A stretch of DNA of 64,000 bases from positions 1,208,882 to 1,272,881 of the forward strand of contig MU004240.1 in NCBI GenBank assembly GCA_010405405.1, given 5' to 3'. Position numbers and translations under genes: made by a program. The notes beneath the pieces were generated by a model. It saw nothing but the letters and a program-made list of their open reading frames with translations, searched no databases and was not told the DNA's origin. Below are positions 43,215-59,120 of this stretch, piece after piece. Position 1 is the first letter of the stretch; every line of letters begins with the position of its first letter. The DNA is from Microthyrium microscopicum (taxonomy: Eukaryota).

Positions 43215-43840
43215 GTAAATATATTAAATGTTAGATCCGGGCTTCATTACTGCTCTCAAGAACTTCCGAGTTTGCGCTGCGTGTTTATGATTATATTGAT
43301 ATTTCCGTAGCCGTGGAGGCCGACACTAATACAACCTGGACTGCCGATAAGTTCATTGGTTGGCTTGATTCCATTTCGAAGTATTCTAGAAAATGCCCCT
43401 TGATCTCACTGGTGTATGATCTTCGCACCTACCTCAACTTCGTCGTTACCCAGCATTCCATCCTCATCCTTTGCCAATTCTCTTTTCGAAGCTTCCAAAT
43501 CACGCCGGACGGTGAAGAGAGCTATTCTCGACCTTCAGGTTACAACGTCGTGCACTTAAGCCCAGTTCCATTTATCTTGCCTTCTCTGGATCAGCATGCG
43601 AAACCGGGGCGCCGACATCTCTCAGATCTCAGGAACCTACAACAGGACTTCGGTATCAGCCTAGTCGTAGATTTTCAGAAATCCTGAGCCTCTTGCAGAG
43701 TGAGCGACAACAAGAGTCATCTCCAAACTATCGGCCTGGGGCATTTCTTGCTGAATCTTACGCCGCGCCCGAGACCAGCCTCGGCGATATTCAAGCCAGT
43801 TGTAGGAAATAGGCCGGGACTTGCCGATGCGTCACATATC

Positions 43841-45871
43841 ATGGCTACAAGCACAGAAATCAGAACGGAGACCCGCTTGAGACCCAATGGCGCAATAAAC
43901 GCCATCCGGAAGAAAAGAAGCATAATTGAAATCCAAGCTTTACTCAATTCCGAGCAGCCCGCACTTCTTGTCGTTTATGGTTCAGAACAAGAGGAGTTTG
44001 TGAACATTGTGGGCGATGTCCTCGGACAGGCTTCCTGTCTCCTATCAGGTCGCGATGATATTCACAGACAAGACCTTTCAACCATCGTCGGAATCCCGGT
44101 TTCCGACTTTGTCCACCAGTGGAACTCTAAAGACTCAGAACGTGTTGTAGTCTACGCTCACAACGTAGACGGCCCCTATCCTCCCGACAATGCGATTACC
44201 TCTCTTTGTCACTACGAATACCTTTACAGATCATCCCCATTTGATAGACGAGATCTATCCAGATACCTTTCATTCATATTAGGCCAAATCAGTCCTCACA
44301 GAGACCTTGCCAAGAAGGAACGAACGTCATTCATATCCACAACTTTTCCAGACGTGAATGCCGCTCTACCAAACCTTGAAATCTTATCCGTTGGCGCCGA
44401 CGCGATTGAACTTCGAGTTGACCTATTAAAAGAACCCTTACCGGATGGTTCCTTTCGCAAGATACCCAGTCTAGAATACGTTGGTGAGCAAGTCATGACC
44501 TTAAGACAACGCACAGAGCTTCCAATCATTTACACCACGAGATGCACAAACGAGAATGGTCGGTTCCCAATGGATGATCCTACTTTATTTTACGACTATC
44601 TGTACAAGGCAATACAATGGGGTTGCGAATACATTGATGTGGAATTGTGGTTGCCTGCAGAAATTCGACGAGCGCTCTCGGAACGCAAAGGAGCAACGAA
44701 AATCATATCTGCCTTCCATGACTTTTCCGGAAATTTCAAATGGACAGCCCCCGAGGCACGGGAACTGTTTCGCGCTGGCGCAGTCTACGGAGATGTGGTG
44801 AAAATGATCGTAGTCGTGAGTACGATGCAAGAGAATTATGAATTGGAATATTTCAGATCCATGATTCAAGCCGAGTACTCCCACCCGCCTCTATCTGGAC
44901 TCAACATGAATCGGGCTGGTCAAATATCAAGATGCTTCAACAAGATATTTACCCCTATCACTCATCCCCTTTTACCAATGATTGCGGCCCCTGGACAACT
45001 CAGTGCAGCGGAGATCAACAGCTCACTTCACAGCATGGGAGAACTTCCAAAACTAGACTTCTATGGTATTGGAAGTGTGAGCCCTCAGTCACAGTCCACT
45101 TTCTTTGAGAAATGCTTCAATGAACTCAGCCTTCCTCATTTGGTCATTTCAATGGAGCAAGCACCATACATAGATGCTCTCATTAAGCAACCGAGATTTG
45201 GTGGTGCATACCTGAATCCTCCTGTACCAACATCCAGAGCCTCTTCAATCCATCTTTCGAGCTCATCCCGGGCCACTGGATTGGTCGATACTATAGTCGT
45301 ACGGTCCGATGGGCTTCGACAGTCTTTCATGGGAGAAAATGCAATCTGGAAGGGGATTAGAGCTACTTTAACTCGCGACTTTCTTCCATCCGCTTATAGC
45401 AGTAGAGCAGCTCTTGTTCTTGCTAGCTCCGAAAATGACGCTGCTTCAGCAGTCTTTGCTCTGAAAAGTCTGCAGATCGGGCCAATCTACACTATCGGAT
45501 TCAAGCCCAGAGGAACATTGTCTGCAGATGTAACGCCAGTAACAGCCATTGAAGACTTGAGACACTTTGAGCATCCATTTGTCATCATTAGTGCCTTACC
45601 CGGGGACAAGAGCCTTCTTGTAGGACCATTGTTGAAGCACTATAGCTCCAGTGGTCGGCAACCAGGAGTCACAGCGGGTAAAGTGTTTCTAGATCTCACA
45701 GAAGGCCCAAAAAGAGGAGATCCACTTGCAATAGCATCGAGCCTCGGATGGACGGCATACAGCATAGACGATGTGAGCGCCTGGACGACAGTAGAAACAA
45801 TTCGGCTTTTGGTTGGCCAGAATGTTCCTTATGATTTTGTACGGCTTGCGTGTGGGCGTGCTTCATTTTGA
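43841..45871 (+). CDS. gaaX: AROM-derived transcriptional repressor (degenerate shikimate kinase + type I dehydroquinase + shikimate dehydrogenase-like domains), GaaX/QutR family
   Basis: About 676-aa intronless ORF with DHQase-like motifs GADAIELRVDLL, LPIIYTTR...ENGRF, IISAFHDF and AAPGQLS, followed by a degenerate SDH-like region. It lacks the DHQ synthase and EPSP domains of AROM and lies next to a Zn2Cys6 gene. The gene symbol is inferred. Confidence 0.7.
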   Translation: MATSTEIRTETRLRPNGAINAIRKKRSIIEIQALLNSEQPALLVVYGSEQEEFVNIVGDVLGQASCLLSGRDDIHRQDLSTIVGIPVSDFVHQWNSKDSERVVVYAHNVDGPYPPDNAITSLCHYEYLYRSSPFDRRDLSRYLSFILGQISPHRDLAKKERTSFISTTFPDVNAALPNLEILSVGADAIELRVDLLKEPLPDGSFRKIPSLEYVGEQVMTLRQRTELPIIYTTRCTNENGRFPMDDPTLFYDYLYKAIQWGCEYIDVELWLPAEIRRALSERKGATKIISAFHDFSGNFKWTAPEARELFRAGAVYGDVVKMIVVVSTMQENYELEYFRSMIQAEYSHPPLSGLNMNRAGQISRCFNKIFTPITHPLLPMIAAPGQLSAAEINSSLHSMGELPKLDFYGIGSVSPQSQSTFFEKCFNELSLPHLVISMEQAPYIDALIKQPRFGGAYLNPPVPTSRASSIHLSSSSRATGLVDTIVVRSDGLRQSFMGENAIWKGIRATLTRDFLPSAYSSRAALVLASSENDAASAVFALKSLQIGPIYTIGFKPRGTLSADVTPVTAIEDLRHFEHPFVIISALPGDKSLLVGPLLKHYSSSGRQPGVTAGKVFLDLTEGPKRGDPLAIASSLGWTAYSIDDVSAWTTVETIRLLVGQNVPYDFVRLACGRASF

Positions 45872-47560
45872 GGCGGGCATGACTGGCAATATACCGACGC
45901 ACGGCGATCGTGTTGCATGATGGCTTGTCGAAGCTATTGATCTTGCATTCGAACTATATATCAGACATCTTTTTCACAGCATTCAAAGTCTAGGTTGATC
46001 GCTATGTAGAACAATGCCACCTTGTCGTACGACAGCAAGATCTAAACTACAAGCATAGCGTGCTTCGGCCACGGCGGTTTTACCAAAGTAGAAGAGGAGA
46101 GTGGCAGCGAAACGAGCCGAGCTCATTTAGGCAACTTTCCGGGTTGATTTCTATCAATTAATCTAATCCCCAAAGCCGAGTGTCTATACAGCATCTGGAC
46201 GTAATGCCTTAGGGTTCCACCTAGCTCGAGCTTTCAGGCTTTGTCCGTACATCCCATGACCAAGAATAGTTAAACTTAGATTACCACTTTGGATTTCTTT
46301 CCTATGGAAGCATAATGCGGGTTTAGCGTCGCTGTCCGAGGCCGACGTACATCTATATTGGACCTTATTGGCTGTTAACATCACTAAACTACTATTTCAA
46401 ACTTTCCAACGACAGGGCATTGATGGACGAATGGTCACAATCCGCATAGATGCTGTAGGACTTGAAACGAAAGTTATCACTTGTTGGGATATAAACCGTC
46501 CTGCATAGATTGTTGAAGAAATCCGGGTCTTCTGTCGTTCATTGAACACCAGTGGGCTCGGTAGTCCCGGCAGGTCTAACCCTTTCCACGGTGCCGGTAA
46601 ATCAACGTGGAGAACACAGAGGAAAGTCGGCCCTGAAGCCGTACCTTGACAGCATTAGGGTCAGATCTAGTTTGGAGATCCCGCATTATTACTACAGATG
46701 TTCTTCGAAGACATAGCGGAAATCAAGTCCAAGTGTGTCCAAGTGTACCTAGCTGTACAGTGGCGAATGCTTGCTGAAGCTAATCCATGAGAACATCCCC
46801 TATACACGTTGTATCTCGACCTTGTGTTCATTGGGGCACTACGCATAAAAACGTATAGCAGCCAGCGGTGGCCAGCACATCATTCATTCTGCATACTACT
46901 CTTACCCGTCACTGCTCTTGCCCCACTCCTCATAGCAGCAAAATTGTCCAACCCCCTTTCTATCCATGTTTTTCTGACAGGTGCATGCAAACGAAACAAA
47001 ATTACCCGGTAGTAAGTTGAAGCGGTCCTGGCTTGGGCTTGTTCTGTATGGTTTAGACAGGGCGATGTTCAAAGGTTGCAAGAATCAAACTTGTTGATCC
47101 ACCGCTGCATGTAGCTCGCGATCTACATTTGAAGGATCAAGGACTGCCAGCGGCTCATCGTTTAAGGATATTTCGAAGCTTCGGTGGTACATATTGGCCT
47201 GCTTGGTGTAGTAACAAGACATAGTCAGCCCAGTAAGATATCCTTTGTCGGCTGTCCGCGCGCCAGCACTGTCGCAGCGAATACTGGTAATAACCTATTT
47301 CCAATGAACAGGGCGTCCTGGTCGATCCCATATACCTCGTGCTCAAGCTCGGATGATGACCAGGGAGTCGCGAGTATCCGAAGTCCCTGCATAGTCTAAC
47401 TTGTTGGCCCATGTTTACTGGAAGGCCAGCTTAATGTCGCTGCTTGGCCATCTCTAAACATATCCAACAGTCCGACATCAGTCTCTGTCTACACACCCGA
47501 ATAATACTTCTCATTTGCCGTGGAAACGAAGTGCCATGCCCACAAGGGCTGCCAGAACCA

Positions 47561-50344
47561 ATGTTGATGATGGCCTCAATTCCCCCGACTCGGCCACAAA
47601 TCGGTATCGATCGCCTAACCCCTCGCAGAGTGGCCACTGAGCCGAGGGAACTGATGAATTGTAAAAGCTGTCGCAAGCGCAAGGTATGACTCTGCGACTT
47701 TCGCTCAGAGTTCAATAGCTTACAAATAATAGATCAAGTGCAATCGTCTTCGACCGTCTTGTGAGGCTTGCCAAGTCTTCGCTGTTCCTTGTATATACGG
47801 TATGTTCGATTGTAGAGTCTCAGATGAAAATTTGGAAGCTGAACCGGACATAGATGCAGTTCCAAAGAAACGCGGGCCCAAAACAGACGTACTTGAAGCA
47901 TTATTGAAAAGAATAGATGGGCTAGAGAAACAATTAAAACCAGAAGATAGGAAAACAGCCAGTTCGAGAGCAGATGCCTCGAGACTTGCTATCCAGACCT
48001 CAGGGGATATTTCATCAAACGGACAATCTTCTACCTTAAACACTCCAGTCTCTGACGCTGTATCTGACATAACAACTCCAACATCAGCATCAACAATTAC
48101 CCACTCTATTCCTCCCATCAATCGATTACGGTATGACTATCATTGCATATTTATGGCGTCTACTAACAAACAGCAGACAAATAAAGGAAACACCAGCTGA
48201 TGGAATTAACGAATTAAACGAACATCTCATAAACTCTTACTTTTCACGAATTCACGGAAAGCCATTTTACATCTGTGATGAAGCTTGCTTTCGACGAAAA
48301 TGGCGAAACGGCTCTATCGATGCCCATCAACTTCTTGCACTTTACGCATTGGGCTCTCGGTAAGTGGTTCTTTGGTTTGCGTTGATCGATGCTTATGTTT
48401 ATGCAGAACCTCGAACCTTTTTGCGGATCATGATCAAGCTGTGACCGCCAGCGAGCATTATGCTCAGCAGGCTAGGCAGTCACTTGACATTGATGAGCCA
48501 CAAATGTCAAGTTTAGTCACACTCTTGTTGCTCTCTCAGCACGCTTTTCAATCTGGTCGCGGAAAGAAAGCATACATGTATCTCTGTAAGTTTGGAACAT
48601 GTAGTTTTCATGCTCGTCTAACAAATAAAAGCTACCGCAATCACTATGGCATACGCATTGAACCTACATCGGGAATTACCCGGACACATTCAAATTTCCA
48701 CCAAGGAGCGGGACACACGACGTCGAGCGTTCTGGACCTGCTACCTCCTAGACCGATTTTATGCTTGCGGGTCAAAACGACCGTGCCTAATACCAGACGA
48801 GTGTATCATTCTTCGACTACCATGCGTTACCGGTGTTCACGGCATGCTGACTGAAAGTAATTATTTCTCTGGAGCTTCTAGTTTGCAGCATATGGGAGGT
48901 CTGAAATCCAACCAAGATGCCGTAGGAATGTTTATCGAAGCAGTTCGAATTCTTGGACTCACAAATCGCTACCTGGCGGCGGGTGGTCCAAAGGCAGACT
49001 CCCATTTTCCCTGGCATGCGATGTCTATGCTTTCGAAAATTCGACAGGAACTAGATGTTTGGGCTACTGAAACGCGAGAAATATTCCAGTCACTGGAACT
49101 TCTATTTGGACACAGCGATAGCACAGTTCTGGTGCTGAGCAAACTCATCTACCATTTGATCCACTGTCTGATATATCGGCCTTTCTTGCCAGTGGACCTT
49201 TTCGAACTGTCGGGAACTTCACAAAACCAATCTTGGAGGATCGAGGCTACAAATATGTGCTTTCTTCACGCGAACGCCATCGCTGAATTGGTGGAATACT
49301 GGAAGAGTCGAAGCAACGTCAGAGAGTGGCCAGCCTTTGTGGGCTATTGTATCTGCACAGCAGGAACAATTCACGTACATGGATCATTCTACAGAGGCGG
49401 TGAAGGCCAAGTGTTTTCACAGAGTCAGGAATTCTTCTCTCTGGAGTTACGGCAACTTGCAGATTTGCGGTTCATTTACACGGGGGCTCAGCATCAACTA
49501 GATACACTACAGTCTATCTATGTTGCACACTCCGAATTGGCACGGTCTTTCGCCTCGAATGCTGCTAGGGTCCCTCCCGTTGTCAATTATGATGACTTCT
49601 TTGATCGATATCAAGGACAAGTCTTCGATGGTGCGTTTTTGGTGCTGGCCAATATTACTTTGGGCTCAGAGATTAGTGTGTAGGTAGAACCTCATCATAA
49701 TATGTAAATATGAGCTGACCAGTCACAGGATACAATCTCGACATGCAAGCCAGGACACTCAGAACGGTTATTATGCCTCGAGTTATACCAAACCTCCAAT
49801 GTATCCGCCATATGATGGCGTTGAGGATTCGACTATAACACTGGCATCGAGTCACGGCGACAGACCACGAAAACGTCGAGCCACTAATCAAGGTGTCTTC
49901 CCTAAGGTCAATGGGGACCATTTACGAAATCACAACCAATCTCCAATATCACCTGGCCCGGCGCCAGCAACAGATCCACTTCCTCAGCAAGCTTTTCCAA
50001 ACCATCATGAGGGCAGCGAGCCGAGTGCAAACCACTATAGCTTCACCCCAGGATTGAGCTACGCTACTAGTCCCACAAGCGGATCTGAACCTCAAAGTAC
50101 ATTCGATCCCATGTTCACAATGCCCACACACTTCGACGCAAGTCCATCAGCGACGCCAAAGTTGCAACCCCCTGAAAGCAAAATCTTAACATCAGATTTA
50201 ACTCCAGCTATATCAATGGCTTCTGCAGTGTCCGAAGCTGATGGCGAAAATGATCCGTTCTTGAGCCTTTTGGAACAATTGGCCGAGAATGAGCATAGTA
50301 GAGGTGGCCCAAGCGAACTCGATTTCTTGCTATCGTCCACCTAA
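47561..50344 (+). CDS. gaaR: Zn2Cys6 transcription factor with fungal-specific middle domain (GaaR/PDR-2-like), multi-exon
   Basis: Zn cluster [28 protein letters not shown], then [38 protein letters not shown] and an acidic C-terminus [14 protein letters not shown]. The TF class is secure; the symbol is inferred from the neighbouring gene and recalled similarity. Confidence 0.7.
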
Positions 50345-51519
50345 CCTAAAGAAAGAGTAATAACAGAATTGAAGAAATACCAAAACTCTGATTGGATGAG
50401 CAGATGCAGATACATTCTCTTTATTCGATTCTTCTCAGTTATTCGGGCTGAGAGTGGTCCTTTAAGATGTGAAACATAAGCATAGTTGAGCGAGACCGAG
50501 ATTTGATGAAGACGACTAACTCAAAAATACCTTGAAACAGTGCTTTCAAAATTAATGTTGCATATTCATGTTACATGGAACGAAAGCAAGAAAGTCTTGG
50601 GATAAATGTATAATAGTACAGTTCTCACATGGCAATGAATAGCGTCAAAAACGCTTCAAAGAACTGACATGCTTTTGGGAATTGTTATGAAAGGCTCATG
50701 TACGTCCGCTTTCGACACGGAAGACTGGATCCAACCAAGCATCTGGAGGCCCTGCACATTGATGAAAGCCCTGAGCAACTGAAGTATGGCTACTAAGCTT
50801 TCAATGTGCGTATGGCCTTGATCCCACCCTCTTCGGGGGTGCCGACGTCCTTCATGTTGCGCTTATCAGTGTGCCAATTGATTGATAGCTTTTGGTTCTC
50901 TTACGATTATCACATGTGGCCAATAACCACTTTCGTAATAGAATGCCCAAATGTTTACAATATAAACCCGATTGCGTGAAAGCTAATGGATTATGAAGTG
51001 TAGCTTGAGATCAAACAGCTGACTGGGAGTGATCTTGCAACGAAAGACATGGCGTAAGTACTACCTAGTAGCTACCTACCTACTCATAGAGGTTGTTTTA
51101 ATGGTAAATCTTATCATTTGTAAGATACAAGTACTACCTAGGTAGGTAGTGGTGACCTAGACGAGAGTTTCTACACTTACTTCCAACATTCCTAATATCT
51201 AGAGGTCCTTGTATCGTTAACAGAGATGAGTAAAGTGAGATGATAAGATTCGAACTGTCGAGAATGCTTTAGCATCGCGCCCAACCTCATCTGATTGCTG
51301 TAGAGTCTATAAAAGCGCACGCAGTAGTGACATGTATCCTGAAAGCATGGGTAGTATATTTTGAGAGTACCAGACAGTAGGAAACTCATTTTCGAATACC
51401 ATAAGCATTAATTAACAATACTGTTCCCATTTCGGGATCAAATAGTTCTATTCGAAAAACTTCGTGGGAGCTACTTGCAGTAGTGATTTATATACAATTT
51501 ATGCGAAAATGGTTGCAAA

Positions 51520-51657
51520 GCTTCCTTAGCTCAGTTGGTAGAGCGGTAAGGACGATCTTTCTTCTTCAAGCTAGCGGTTGACTAACCCATTATAGCTTGA
51601 CTAGTACAGTCTATGATTGTTATCAAGAAGTCACTCGTTCAAATCGGGTAGGAAGCA
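51520..51657 (+). tRNA. tRNA-Thr(AGT) interrupted by a 50-nt GT-AG intron (26/27) and a 15-nt canonical intron (37/38)
   Basis: Removing 51546-51595 and 51607-51621 gives a complete cloverleaf: acceptor GCTTCCT/AGGAAGC, D arm GCTC-AGTTGGTA-GAGC, anticodon arm CTTGA-CTAGTAA-TCAAG, variable loop AAGTC, T arm ACTCG-TTCAAAT-CGGGT, discriminator A. A and B boxes are intact. Confidence 0.93.
51546..51595 (+). other. Spliceosomal-type intron inside the tRNA gene
   Basis: GTAAGG donor, pyrimidine tract CTTTCTTCTTC, branch site GACTAAC (51580-51586) and TAG acceptor. Size and signals match the mRNA introns in this window. Confidence 0.85.
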
Positions 51658-51701
51658 ACTTCTACATTTGAAACTGTCCAATTCATCTTGGAACAAGAGT
51701 G

Positions 51702-51709
51702 TTTTTTTT
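51702..51709 (+). terminator. RNA polymerase III oligo(dT) terminator of the tRNA gene
   Basis: T8 run about 45 nt downstream of the tRNA 3' end; the first run of four or more T after the gene. Confidence 0.6.
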
Positions 51710-52532
51710 GAGTTTTGAATACCGGTATATTACCATTTTTTGGCTGCAATACACACAGAGGTAACCTGAATTTTTCACAATGAGCTGGGTCTTGTAACTC
51801 AGTATCGAGGTACCTGATAAGCCGTCGAACAGAGCGTTATTTTGTCATTTACTACAGCTGAGATCGCATTCTTGTGAATACTTTCACAATTCCCCCATGT
51901 GTTTTCTTCCCTCACGAAGCTTCGTCAGCAGAATGAGCTCGTTCGTGAGATCATAGTGGTCAATCACTTTGCTGAACAGTAGCTTTCGGTTTCAACGTGT
52001 TGACCCTTAGTCCAAGTTTTCGTTCATATACTGGAATAAGATGTATATCTGGCCAGAACGAAATAGCAATACGGCGCGTTCGTACAAAATTCGTACTCAG
52101 CCGCGGAAATATCATGGTACTTTCTGCTTCTTTTTTCAACTCCCAACAAGCATCTTAAGACTTGTACGATGATTCGTACTCATTGACTCGCTTTTTGTTA
52201 GGGGTAGATAGTTCCTAAAGAAATTTGGAGTTGGCGAATACCCTGACGAGGCTTGCACAAAGCTTACAAATACTCCACCAAATACAGGTAGCGTCTACCA
52301 CTTGTAGCTCCATACAAGGAAGTTATGTAGTCATTGCACTGGTTTGTAATAATGCGGATGATGTATATTCGTATTTCCGATCTTCCTCCGCTTTGTATGC
52401 GTTCGTCTAAAGCCCGAGTTGCCTGCTAAAGAACTACGACGTCCATAAAGTTCAAGGTTGGTGTCACGAATCACGATCATAAGATCACGAAGCACCAAAC
52501 CTCGGCAACTCTTTCATACTTCACGAGTGATT

Positions 52533-53702
52533 ATGTCTACACCCATCCCAAAATCTCACAAGCGCGTGGTAGCTATCGCAAAACGTGCTCCACTTGAGCT
52601 TCATACCGTCCCCACCAAAGCACCCGAGGCCAACGAGGTTCTCGTTCGAGTATCTTATGCTGCATCTAGTCCACTTAACCTACACGTTGCGGATGGCAAT
52701 CTTCTTGGTGGCCTACCCAACGTTGGCTGGAATGGCGCCTTTGCTGGCTCGGTAGCTGCACTGGGCCCGGAAACTCAAACTGGGCTGAAAATCGGAGATC
52801 CTGTCTTTGGCTTCACTTGGCGTGACAACAAGGAAAAATCTGGTCAGGAGTACCTGACTGCGCCTGAGACGATGATGGGTCGCATACCCGACGGAGCAGA
52901 TGAACGAGCTTACGCAACTGTGCCGGATAGCTTTGTCACTGCGTGGCATACATTGCGGACAGAGCTGGGGATGAAGCTTCCTTGGCCGAAACCTGATGGC
53001 TGGAAACCTCGGAACGTGGATACGCCAGTGCTGGTCTGGGGTGCGAGTAGTAGTGTTGGCTGGTTCGCTTTGCCTCTGCTGAAATGGGCGGGCTATACCA
53101 ATGTTGTGGCCACAGCTGGAATGAAACATCACGAGCGATTGAAGCAGTTAGGTGCGACTAAAGCATTCGACTACAGGGACGGAGATGTCGTTGAGAAATT
53201 GAGGGACGCGGCTGGACCACCGGGCTTCAGATATTTTGTGGATTGTATTGGTTCTCTGGAAGGATCAGTCAGGCCAATTGCTCAAATCGCTGGACCTGGA
53301 TCCACCATTGCAATCATGCTGCCGGTCATTGTTCGAACTGCAACAGAAACCGTCGAGCCAATCTACTCGATGGATGTGAAAGATCCCGAAATACACGTGG
53401 ACTGGAAAGATGGATCAAATCCTGTTGGAGTGAGGACTCATTTTTATACCAAGGTTGGTGATGTTTCCGGATCCTACAGTCTACCTGCGACGTTGTTGCC
53501 ACTAACAATCTGACAGGACGAGTTTGCTGCCAATAACTTACAACCAGTCGTTATGCCAGCCTTGCTACAATCCGGAGACATAGAACCGGCTTCTTACAGA
53601 ATAATGGAAGGAAAGGATATGCTCGAAAGGGCTGAGAAAGCGTTGAGCCTTTTCCGGTCAGGGGCAGTTTCTGGTGAGCGACTGATCTGGTCAACAAGTT
53701 AG
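52533..53702 (+). CDS. MDR-superfamily enoyl-reductase-like oxidoreductase (zinc-independent, ToxD/YNL134C-like), 2 exons
   Basis: GroES-like N-terminus, VLVWGASSSVG nucleotide-binding motif, LKQLGATKAFDYRD and C-terminal GAVSGERLIW. Intron about 53453-53517. Confidence 0.88.
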
Positions 53703-56911: not shown

Positions 56912-59120
56912 TTACACATTCGGCGACAGCAAGTCGTACTTGACGCAACGTTCCACCTAGACATTCATTAGAAAAGCGATTGGAGGGATATGTCAAACTT
57001 ACACTTTCAATCGAAGCTTGCAACCAGCTTCGTATTTCTAGTCCGCCCCAGACCTTAAGCATTGAAAGATCGCCTCCACGAATCATTCCTGATCCACCTT
57101 GCGCGCCCAGCTGGCGAAGGATTGGTAAAGCACTACAGTTCTATGTTAGTGATGACACTATCAGAACGTTCAAGTTCACCTACCCAGCAAATAGATCAAG
57201 ATCCGGATCCAAGGCGCGCCCGATACCTTCCAGCAGCAGAATACTCAAGACAACATTGACAAAGTCTCCTTCAAGTCTGACATGATGCATTCTCACCATA
57301 CTCAGAACCTCATTCAAAATATCGCCAATCTTGATGTTTCCCAACGCAAATGTCTGACTCTTTACGCCGAGGACGAGATGTTGCATCCGTAGAGCAAACA
57401 CTTCCGGATCAATGACCTCATCCGGTGAACGACAGCGCTCGACCATCAGTCGACCAGACTTGTACCCGTCGAATTCTGCAACGGACTTGAAAAGATCCAA
57501 GAAGTTTTTACGGTTCAACTCGTTTAGTTCTGTCACTAATCCAGTGTCGATGAAAATTATCTGCGGTCTGTAGCCTTCAGTGTCGATTTGTTTGAGTTGT
57601 GCTATCCATTCTTCGTGCTTGCCCCTGCAAGGTCGAAGTCTCGAGAGGACTTCTTCCGTCACGTCGGTAGATTCTTTCAGCGTTTTCATAGCATCTTTGC
57701 TCTTGCCTCGCCAAGAGGGTACTCCTAGATTCTTGGGTTTGTAGAAGCGGACCATGATGTTTCCGGGATGTAAGTCGGCATGGATAAAGTTGTCGATGAG
57801 CAACATGCGCATGAAAGCATCTAGACCTTCATCTGCAATCTCTTTCTGAAAAGCACCACCTCCGTTTTCCAGAAAATCGGCTAGTGGAATGCCTTGTGCA
57901 AACTCCTCGATCAATACGTTGCGAGTTGTGTAGTCTGTGTATGGGAATGGGAACCAAGCTGTACTTCGCTCAGCAAAGTTTTGGCGGAATCGAGTGAGAT
58001 TTGCAGACTCAATTCGCAGATCCAGTTGTAGCTTCATCATCTCTCCAAATTGGACTACCTCGTCTGGAAAGGAGAGCCATTGCATGGTAGGGATAAGGTT
58101 TATGATACTGGCAAAGAAGCCCATTATGCGAAGATCGCGCTGGACGATGCGATCAACGCCCGGATGAAGTACTTTTATAGCCACGTATGTAGACGGCACT
58201 CGCTGCGGTGTGCTTTTCAGTGCTGTGTCGACACCCTCTTTTAAGGTCTGGGTGATGCTCTGTGGCTTTTGTATATCGATATCGCCCGGAACAGCAAGGT
58301 CGGGACTGAGTTTTGCCTTGTAGACTTGGGCAATGGCACCAACGCCTAATGGTTTCTCCTGAAACTCCTCAAAGATGTCTTTAAAATCTCGATCAAAGGC
58401 GTGCTCAATGATCTTCTTGCTTGCTGCGAGAGAGTGTGGTGGAGCATTGGAGTGCAGACTTGACATTATCTTGCACATCTCGGTAGGAAATATGTCTGAT
58501 CGTGAAGCCGCCCATTGACCCAGCTATCGACGACTTAGTCAACCGCTTTCCAGAGTCTAATTCTATGCAGAACTTACCTTTATGAACGCAGCCCCAGCTC
58601 TTTCCATAGACCGAACCAAAAACCCATACCACCATAATGTTCCCCACCTCTCATTATCTCTGGCGGGTACCGTTTCCCCAATCCATATTATTGGGATAGT
58701 CACAATGACGGGCACAAAGATAACGGCTAGGTGTACGAAGCGCAATGCGGTACATAATGGCTCCCAGATATACAAGTCCAAGAAGAAGTATACGCCTCGC
58801 CGTATCTTTGTCGAGTTCTCAAGGACTCTTGGGACATGGTCTGCGAGTTCAGCGCGCGACTGCTCTAGCATGCGCTCCTCGCCCGTCTTGCCATCATCAT
58901 TGTCCTCATTGCTCAGCTGTATGAACGCGGCCGGCGCAAGAATGGTAGCGGATGCTAGAAGTACACCCTTTCGTTGCCGCGGTGGAGATCCGGCGAAATT
59001 TGGGGCTGTAAATTGTCGAGATTGGACTCGGAAAGAACTGATGCGCGAGGGGATTCGAGGCGCGTGTTGGAGGGGCGATTGACGAAAACACAGGCGACCT
59101 GTGGCCAAAAGCCGGCTCAT
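56912..59120 (-). CDS. CQD1: Mitochondrial ABC1/UbiB atypical kinase (YPL109C/Cqd1, ADCK2-like), 4 exons
   Basis: Motifs GAAFIK/LGQWAASRSDIF, PLGVGAIAQVYKA, VAIKVLHP, NFIHADLHPGNI and IFIDTGL. Ends ERCVKYDLLSPNV*. Confidence 0.88.

Follow-up and report, generated by a model that had tools for sequence, protein, structure and literature searches.

The three intron types of nuclear genomes are treated as completely unrelated to each other, and under the textbook division spliceosomal introns are assigned to Pol II transcripts and tRNA introns to the endonuclease pathway (PMC12530127). Hosts other than mRNA have been described for spliceosomal introns, comprising the U6, U1, U2 and U5 snRNA genes and the rRNA genes of ascomycetes; the determinants of intron insertion into non-coding RNAs are considered unclear (PMC5855946). 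The U6 introns of fungi, fission yeast among them, and the U1, U2 and U5 introns of Rhodotorula, resemble the tRNA-Thr(AGT) gene described here in that a small, structured non-coding RNA gene is interrupted by a short GT-AG intron that has a branch site. In the case of U6 the likeness extends to a host transcribed by Pol III, and for snRNA introns generally a reverse-splicing origin is presumed, many insertions being species-specific (PMC5855946). However, tRNA is not part of the spliceosome, which makes reasoning based on closeness to the active site inapplicable; furthermore, the tRNA-Thr precursor differs from the snRNAs in carrying an endonuclease-type intron also. Splicing of the U6 intron has been demonstrated in S. 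pombe, whereas the tRNA-Thr case is known from its sequence.

The spliceosomal introns of ascomycete rRNA (Bhattacharya et al. 2000, as cited in PMC5855946) are alike in occupying a host gene that is not transcribed by Pol II, within the Pezizomycotina, and in being recognised by their signals together with the conserved RNA that is restored by their removal. They differ in having a Pol I host, in their positions and in being spread over many lineages, where the tRNA-Thr intron is a single locus in one genome. Among tRNA genes, those of archaea, Cyanidioschyzon and nucleomorphs (PMC4090602, PMC3978253) provide the nearest comparison, since they too can contain at least two introns, one lying away from the 37/38 site, and are failed by ordinary finders; yet those introns form a bulge-helix-bulge (BHB), or a relaxed BHB, that is cut by the endonuclease, while the tRNA-Thr insert has a 5' splice site, a branch site and a 3' splice site instead. 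Finally, the introner-like elements of Dothideomycetes (PMC4457414) come from the same fungal class, and they offer a mechanism of recent gain that could strike any transcribed DNA. These elements are multi-copy, whereas the tRNA-Thr insert has no second copy within the 64 kb analysed and is of ordinary intron length (50 nt). Two further reports bear on how such a gene might arise and be expressed: reverse splicing by post-catalytic spliceosomes has been described as a route of intron transposition (PMC11146597), and a nuclear non-coding transcript of Neurospora is spliced efficiently at splice sites that apparently occur by chance (PMC4408805). No published spliceosomal intron in a tRNA gene was found in the literature searched, which covers only a minority of subscription journals, nor does the host list in PMC5855946, as far as its available text goes, include one; an earlier note on this DNA, made from the sequence, had likewise known of no such case.

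The gene is located within a window of 64 kb, being the whole stretch of DNA that was analysed, and occupies positions 51520-51657 on the forward strand. Its body of 138 nt consists of three exons and two inserts, the coordinates of which are given in Table 1 with those of the flanking elements and of the RNA that overlaps the locus.

Table 1. Window coordinates of the tRNA-Thr(AGT) gene, its flanking elements and the overlapping RNA contig
Feature	Position	Strand	Description
TATATA	51489-51494	+	26-31 nt upstream of tRNA position 1; read from sequence
Exon 1	51520-51545	+	tRNA positions 1-26: acceptor 5' strand, D arm, G26; ends GAGCG
Spliceosomal-type insert, 50 nt	51546-51595	+	Between positions 26 and 27
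Exon 2 (CTTGACTAGTA)	51596-51606	+	Positions 27-37: anticodon-stem 5' strand CTTGA, loop bases CTAGTA, anticodon AGT
Canonical tRNA intron, 15 nt	51607-51621	+	Site 37/38
Exon 3	51622-51657	+	Positions 38-73: anticodon-stem 3' strand, variable loop, T arm, acceptor 3' strand, discriminator A73
T8 run	51702-51709	+	First downstream run of at least 4 T; 44 nt past position 73
RNA contig of run X1, 618 nt	51534-52146	undefined	Mean word depth 27.8

When both inserts were sliced out in silico, a sequence of 73 nt remained that was called as tRNA-Thr(agt) by ARAGORN, and standard pairs were present at 21 of 21 stem positions in the restored cloverleaf (20 Watson-Crick pairs plus U51-G63). Inspection showed that the conserved tRNA bases were kept (U8, G18 G19, U33, G53 T54 T55 C56, C61, G1-C72, C2-G71 and A73). 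The 15-nt intron has the two features of a canonical endonuclease intron, that is, its position at 37/38 and an anticodon-intron pair, with C32 able, on inspection, to pair with the G at -3 of the intron. Besides the 50-nt insert, no other damage to the gene was identified: its stems were unbroken, and neither conserved bases nor promoter boxes had been lost. The anatomy proposed in the earlier note, i.e., a tRNA-Thr(AGT) gene with a 50-nt insert after position 26 and a second intron at 37/38, the excision of which leaves a 73-nt tRNA with every stem paired and a C32:G anticodon-intron pair, was therefore borne out when the sequence was reread.

An A-box-like sequence, TAGCTCAGTTGG, was present in the D arm of exon 1 and a B-box-like sequence, GTTCAAATC, in the T arm of exon 3; by comparison with the consensus forms, these are taken to be the A box and B box. 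The two introns lengthen the distance between the boxes by 65 nt, which is within the tolerance of yeast TFIIIC. Neither intron contains a Pol III terminator. The T8 run downstream is likely to function as the terminator, and the TATATA element could be an upstream promoter element. As read, then, the locus has what would be expected of a Pol III tRNA gene: boxes, a cloverleaf, no internal terminator and a downstream T run.

The gene was not visible to tools in ordinary use. ARAGORN, as first run, returned 0 genes at the locus, and Rfam gave nothing there at the gathering score and no tRNA match at E<=10. With introns allowed, ARAGORN miscalled the locus as tRNA-Ile(gat) with a 63-nt intron; this candidate was rejected, its stem including a G-U pair where the two-intron solution provides a perfect anticodon stem of 5 bp. 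The suspicion that standard tRNA finders would miss or mis-score such a gene was thus correct, and since ARAGORN and Rfam both overlook it, counts of tRNA genes made with standard tools would be incomplete if the gene works.

The signals of the 50-nt insert were compared with those of introns in neighbouring genes and in the window at large. The donor, GTAAGG (51546-51551), coincides exactly with the 5' boundary of the insert and fits GTRNG; the branch site, GACTAAC, occupies 51580-51586, and its branch A (51585) is 10 nt away from the 3' end of the insert; and the acceptor, TAG, is at 51593-51595. The insert has a pyrimidine-rich stretch, in which, as elsewhere in the insert, no T run exceeds 3. 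Its boundaries can slide by 1 base, because G26 and the last base of the insert are both G, and GT-AG ends are obtained in one register only. Two neighbouring introns were verified by joints in RNA contigs. The first, at 49680-49728, is 49 nt long and reads GTAGGT...GCTGAC...CAG; the second, at approximately 53454-53516, is 63 nt long and reads GTTGGT...CACTAAC...CAG. A catalogue for the window was compiled with an ORF-bridging heuristic, giving 46 raw candidates that clustered into 29, although this procedure was imperfect and chose the wrong donor for the RNA-verified 63-nt intron. Candidates of 43-70 nt made up 20 of the 29. Reading of the list showed that 9 of these 20 short introns began with GTAAG and that 11 contained CTAAC. 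Branch sites among the catalogued and RNA-verified introns were CTAAC, CTGAC or CTAAT, at distances similar to that in the insert. Position +6 of the nine catalogued GTAAG donors was T, A or C and never G, whereas the tRNA insert has G. With that exception, the insert reads as a typical intron of this genome in its length and in all three signals, and by sequence it is a spliceosomal-type (U2-type, GT-AG) intron. It had been claimed that the donor, branch site and acceptor were like those of the genome's mRNA introns, and that Pol III could read through an insert with no T run longer than 3; the verified and catalogued introns agree with the former, and the run lengths with the latter.

The probability of such signals arising by chance was estimated with random 50-mers drawn from a first-order Markov model of the window, with CTRAY required to lie 6-20 nt from the end. 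GTRNG, CTRAY and YAG were combined in 39 of 2,999,950 sequences (1.3e-5), and all signals with GTAAG in 2 of 2,999,950. Among the real 50-mers of the window, 5 of 127,900 on both strands conformed to the relaxed rule, the tRNA insert being one of these. The specificity of the locus was examined by removing each GT...CTRAY...YAG segment of 35-150 nt from the window and rescanning for tRNA. There were 265 intron-like segments on both strands, and a tRNA call followed removal for just 3, all of which started at 51546. The alternative acceptors for this donor, at 51604 and 51609, were rejected due to mismatched anticodon stems. A complete set of intron signals that exactly fills the gap in a cloverleaf is not a chance occurrence.

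Searches for related elements were largely negative. An introner-like element or repeat would have several near-identical copies in the genome; within the 64-kb window, no second copy of the insert was found. The best other match in the window was 13 nt, AGCGGTTGACTAA, located at 58535-58547 (-) and corresponding to 51574-51586 (+) in the insert (blastn-short, E 0.03); it falls within a putative 54-nt intron at 58524-58577 (-) of an ABC1-kinase-like gene. The two introns have GTAAG and ATAG ends in common and the 13 nt around the branch site are identical, while their middles differ. This identity may have arisen by chance or may reflect shared descent of the two introns. Two patterns were applied to metagenome contigs. 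The first, comprising the end of the D arm, any 35-65 nt and the anticodon stem-loop of tRNA-Thr, matched 0 contigs. The second, TGGTAGAGCG combined with GTRAG...CTRAC...YAG, matched 23 loci, with the 5' half of a tRNA upstream in 0 of the 23; these look like chance matches, and several were repeated, near-identical copies. Further tRNAs split by spliceosomal-type inserts, for which a search had been suggested, were therefore found neither in the window nor in the two metagenome scans.

RNA evidence was taken from the contigs of one sequencing run, X1, compared with positions 49600-53600. These contigs carry no strand information and drop rare forms, such that they demonstrate presence and not absence; spliced RNA is contained in the run, because GT..AG joints were observed in both neighbouring genes. 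The 618-nt contig that overlaps the tRNA gene (Table 1) was identical to the window over 51534-52146, with 0 differing letters, and its first 5 letters do not match the window. An assembly artefact was rejected as the source of the insert on this basis, given that the RNA contig is independent. The contig runs unspliced across the 3' junction of the insert and the two junctions of the 15-nt intron; on the exon 1 side it has only 12 letters, so that the 5' junction of the insert is not formally bridged. Downstream, it extends 489 nt beyond the tRNA and through the T8 run. Hence, there is an intron-containing RNA over the locus that is longer than a Pol III pre-tRNA, and the RNA represented by the 618-nt contig is neither a normal Pol III pre-tRNA nor spliced. 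No joint at 51545/51596 is listed among the X1 contigs, from which rare forms are dropped, and mature tRNAs are not expected in contig assemblies of this kind. Upstream, over 50940-51533, contig cover was absent, which is to be read in light of contigs recording presence only.

Given these observations, the locus is tentatively considered to be a real nuclear tRNA-Thr(AGU) gene that works and that needs first the spliceosome and then the tRNA endonuclease, a reading to which we would give somewhat less than even chances. Only slightly more guarded is the proposal that spliceosome-dependent maturation of a nuclear tRNA would bring two unrelated splicing machineries to bear, in turn, on a precursor of 138 nt. 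Under this scheme, Pol III would transcribe the 138-nt body in full, directed by the A and B boxes, both of which are intact, and the nuclear spliceosome would recognise the short intron whole, in the way that it recognises the 43-70-nt mRNA introns of this fungus. The intron would leave as a lariat branched at A51585, with G26 being joined to C27. Only after this removal would the anticodon stem and the L-shape form, allowing the tRNA splicing endonuclease and ligase to excise the 15-nt intron. Reverse splicing or intron transposition is the most likely origin of the spliceosomal intron itself.

Predicted folding of the precursor fits the idea, put forward in the earlier note, that the 50-nt intron must leave first. 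The minimum free energy (MFE) structure, at -40.1 kcal/mol, kept the acceptor stem and D arm and broke the T arm; a precursor constrained to the cloverleaf had -34.1 kcal/mol, and so was 6 kcal/mol less stable than the misfold. Within the MFE structure, UUCAAGC of the intron (51565-51572) was paired with GCUUGA (51595-51600), which comprises the last intron base and the 5' strand of the anticodon stem. The 15-nt intron and A37 together formed a 6-bp hairpin in the folds. As a separate observation, UUCAAGC mimics the 3' strand of the anticodon stem.

A working gene is favoured because the exons, promoter boxes, canonical intron and splice signals are flawless, and because of the precedents in U6 and rRNA; a long-dead copy is disfavoured, since decay in the exons or splice signals would then be expected. 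Several points count against a working gene or in favour of a young dead copy, in which one redundant tRNA-Thr(AGT) gene has recently been hit by intron gain and has not yet decayed. The RNA contig retains the introns and runs through the T8 run, with no spliced junction seen among the contigs. Neither an orthologue nor a second case emerged from the metagenome scans, and a published spliceosome-dependent tRNA was not found. The G at donor position +6 is absent from the nine catalogued GTAAG donors; the precursor is predicted to prefer a misfold by 6 kcal/mol, and would have a trailer of 44 nt before the T run. Apart from U6, transcripts made by Pol III are generally spliced with low efficiency. 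The tRNA-Thr(AGT) genes are normally a multi-copy family, and the loss of one copy could therefore be tolerated. Such a copy would have been produced through reverse splicing with recombination, or by a transposed intron-like element, with splicing absent or too rare and no tRNA made; multiplying introner-like elements, along with recent gains of introns, are reported from Dothideomycetes (PMC4457414), the class in which the host belongs (order Microthyriales). Against this, no flaw is seen in the exons, the two promoter boxes, the three splice signals or the canonical intron and its anticodon-intron pair, which would leave only a short time since inactivation. There is also no similar element in the 64-kb window beyond the 13-nt identity with one putative intron, and 50 nt is the length of an ordinary short intron. 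Introner-like elements are longer than ordinary introns of 50 nt. A young dead copy is, consequently, a possibility that we hold nearly as readily as a working gene, and these two readings are almost level.

It is improbable that the intron is owned by an overlapping, non-coding Pol II RNA on the forward strand, with the tRNA gene merely collateral to it and maybe inactivated. The passage of the 618-nt contig (51534-52146) beyond the T8 run, and a length exceeding that of a normal Pol III pre-tRNA, are consistent with such an RNA, and no recognised family was identified in the stretch that it covers: Rfam produced chance-level matches only (E<=1 over 51650-52540; E<=10 over 51400-51800), and no Pfam family was found in the two short ORFs scanned within 51534-52146. 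However, the same contig keeps the intron, whereas the two neighbouring mRNAs appear spliced, and its strand is undefined. Moreover, it would be a coincidence for the intron of some other RNA to have its boundaries exactly at 26/27 and to leave a cloverleaf on removal.

The transcribed stretch was also observed to start or stop inside the A box of the tRNA. If it is sense, the RNA of 51534-52146 would be a Pol II RNA starting within the tRNA gene. If antisense, its end, approximately 40 nt downstream of TATATA, would be consistent with a Pol II transcript halted where a Pol III initiation complex is bound. A roadblock to a Pol II transcript by the Pol III initiation complex is an existing idea.

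We know of no description of non-canonical BHB tRNA introns in Pezizomycotina. In archaea, red algae and nucleomorphs, BHB introns do occupy non-canonical positions (PMC4090602, PMC3978253), but it is very improbable that the insert, at position 26/27, is an ectopic intron of this kind that the tRNA splicing endonuclease would cut. No BHB could be drawn at its junctions (central helix at most 3/4 pairs and outer helices 2/5) and none was present in the MFE fold; in addition, the presence of all the spliceosomal signals precisely at its boundaries would be left as an unexplained coincidence of ~1e-5.

Returning to a working tRNA-Thr gene, this would extend the non-mRNA hosts of spliceosomal introns, i.e., U6, U1, U2, U5 and rRNA, to the most abundant product of Pol III. 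It would also imply that the fungal spliceosome acts on a compact, highly structured and uncapped RNA, and would supply a simple, natural substrate for studying what determines the sites at which reverse splicing inserts new introns. Should the copy be dead, it would still capture, as is seldom possible, an intron soon after its gain, with its insertion point fixed to within one base.

The neighbourhood of the locus provided further context. Pfam matches in the window include Fungal_trans and DUF7907, which, together with the short introns, indicate a filamentous ascomycete. The product of a 389-aa ORF of the window was 100% identical to a cystathionine beta-lyase of Microthyrium microscopicum, so that the DNA comes from this species or one very close to it; for this protein, the next named genomes were at 75-83% identity. 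The tRNA gene lies in the interval between a Fungal_trans regulator gene and a zinc-dehydrogenase gene. A repeat search around the tRNA locus returned nothing beyond a weak direct repeat of 17 nt (82% identity) at 51321-51337 and 51477-51493, upstream of the tRNA, the second copy of which overlaps TATATA; this is probably chance. Approximately 400 nt upstream of the tRNA, a stretch at 51055-51160 that lay below the threshold of the repeat search was rich in repeated or mirrored TACCTA and TAGGTA words, and contained AGTACTACCTAG twice. Within 43688-50344 (+), an open frame of 727 aa with a type I 3-dehydroquinase domain adjoins the gene of the Fungal_trans regulator, and the RNA contig of the latter reveals the 49-nt intron by its joint; the two may represent a gene pair for quinate/shikimate utilisation.
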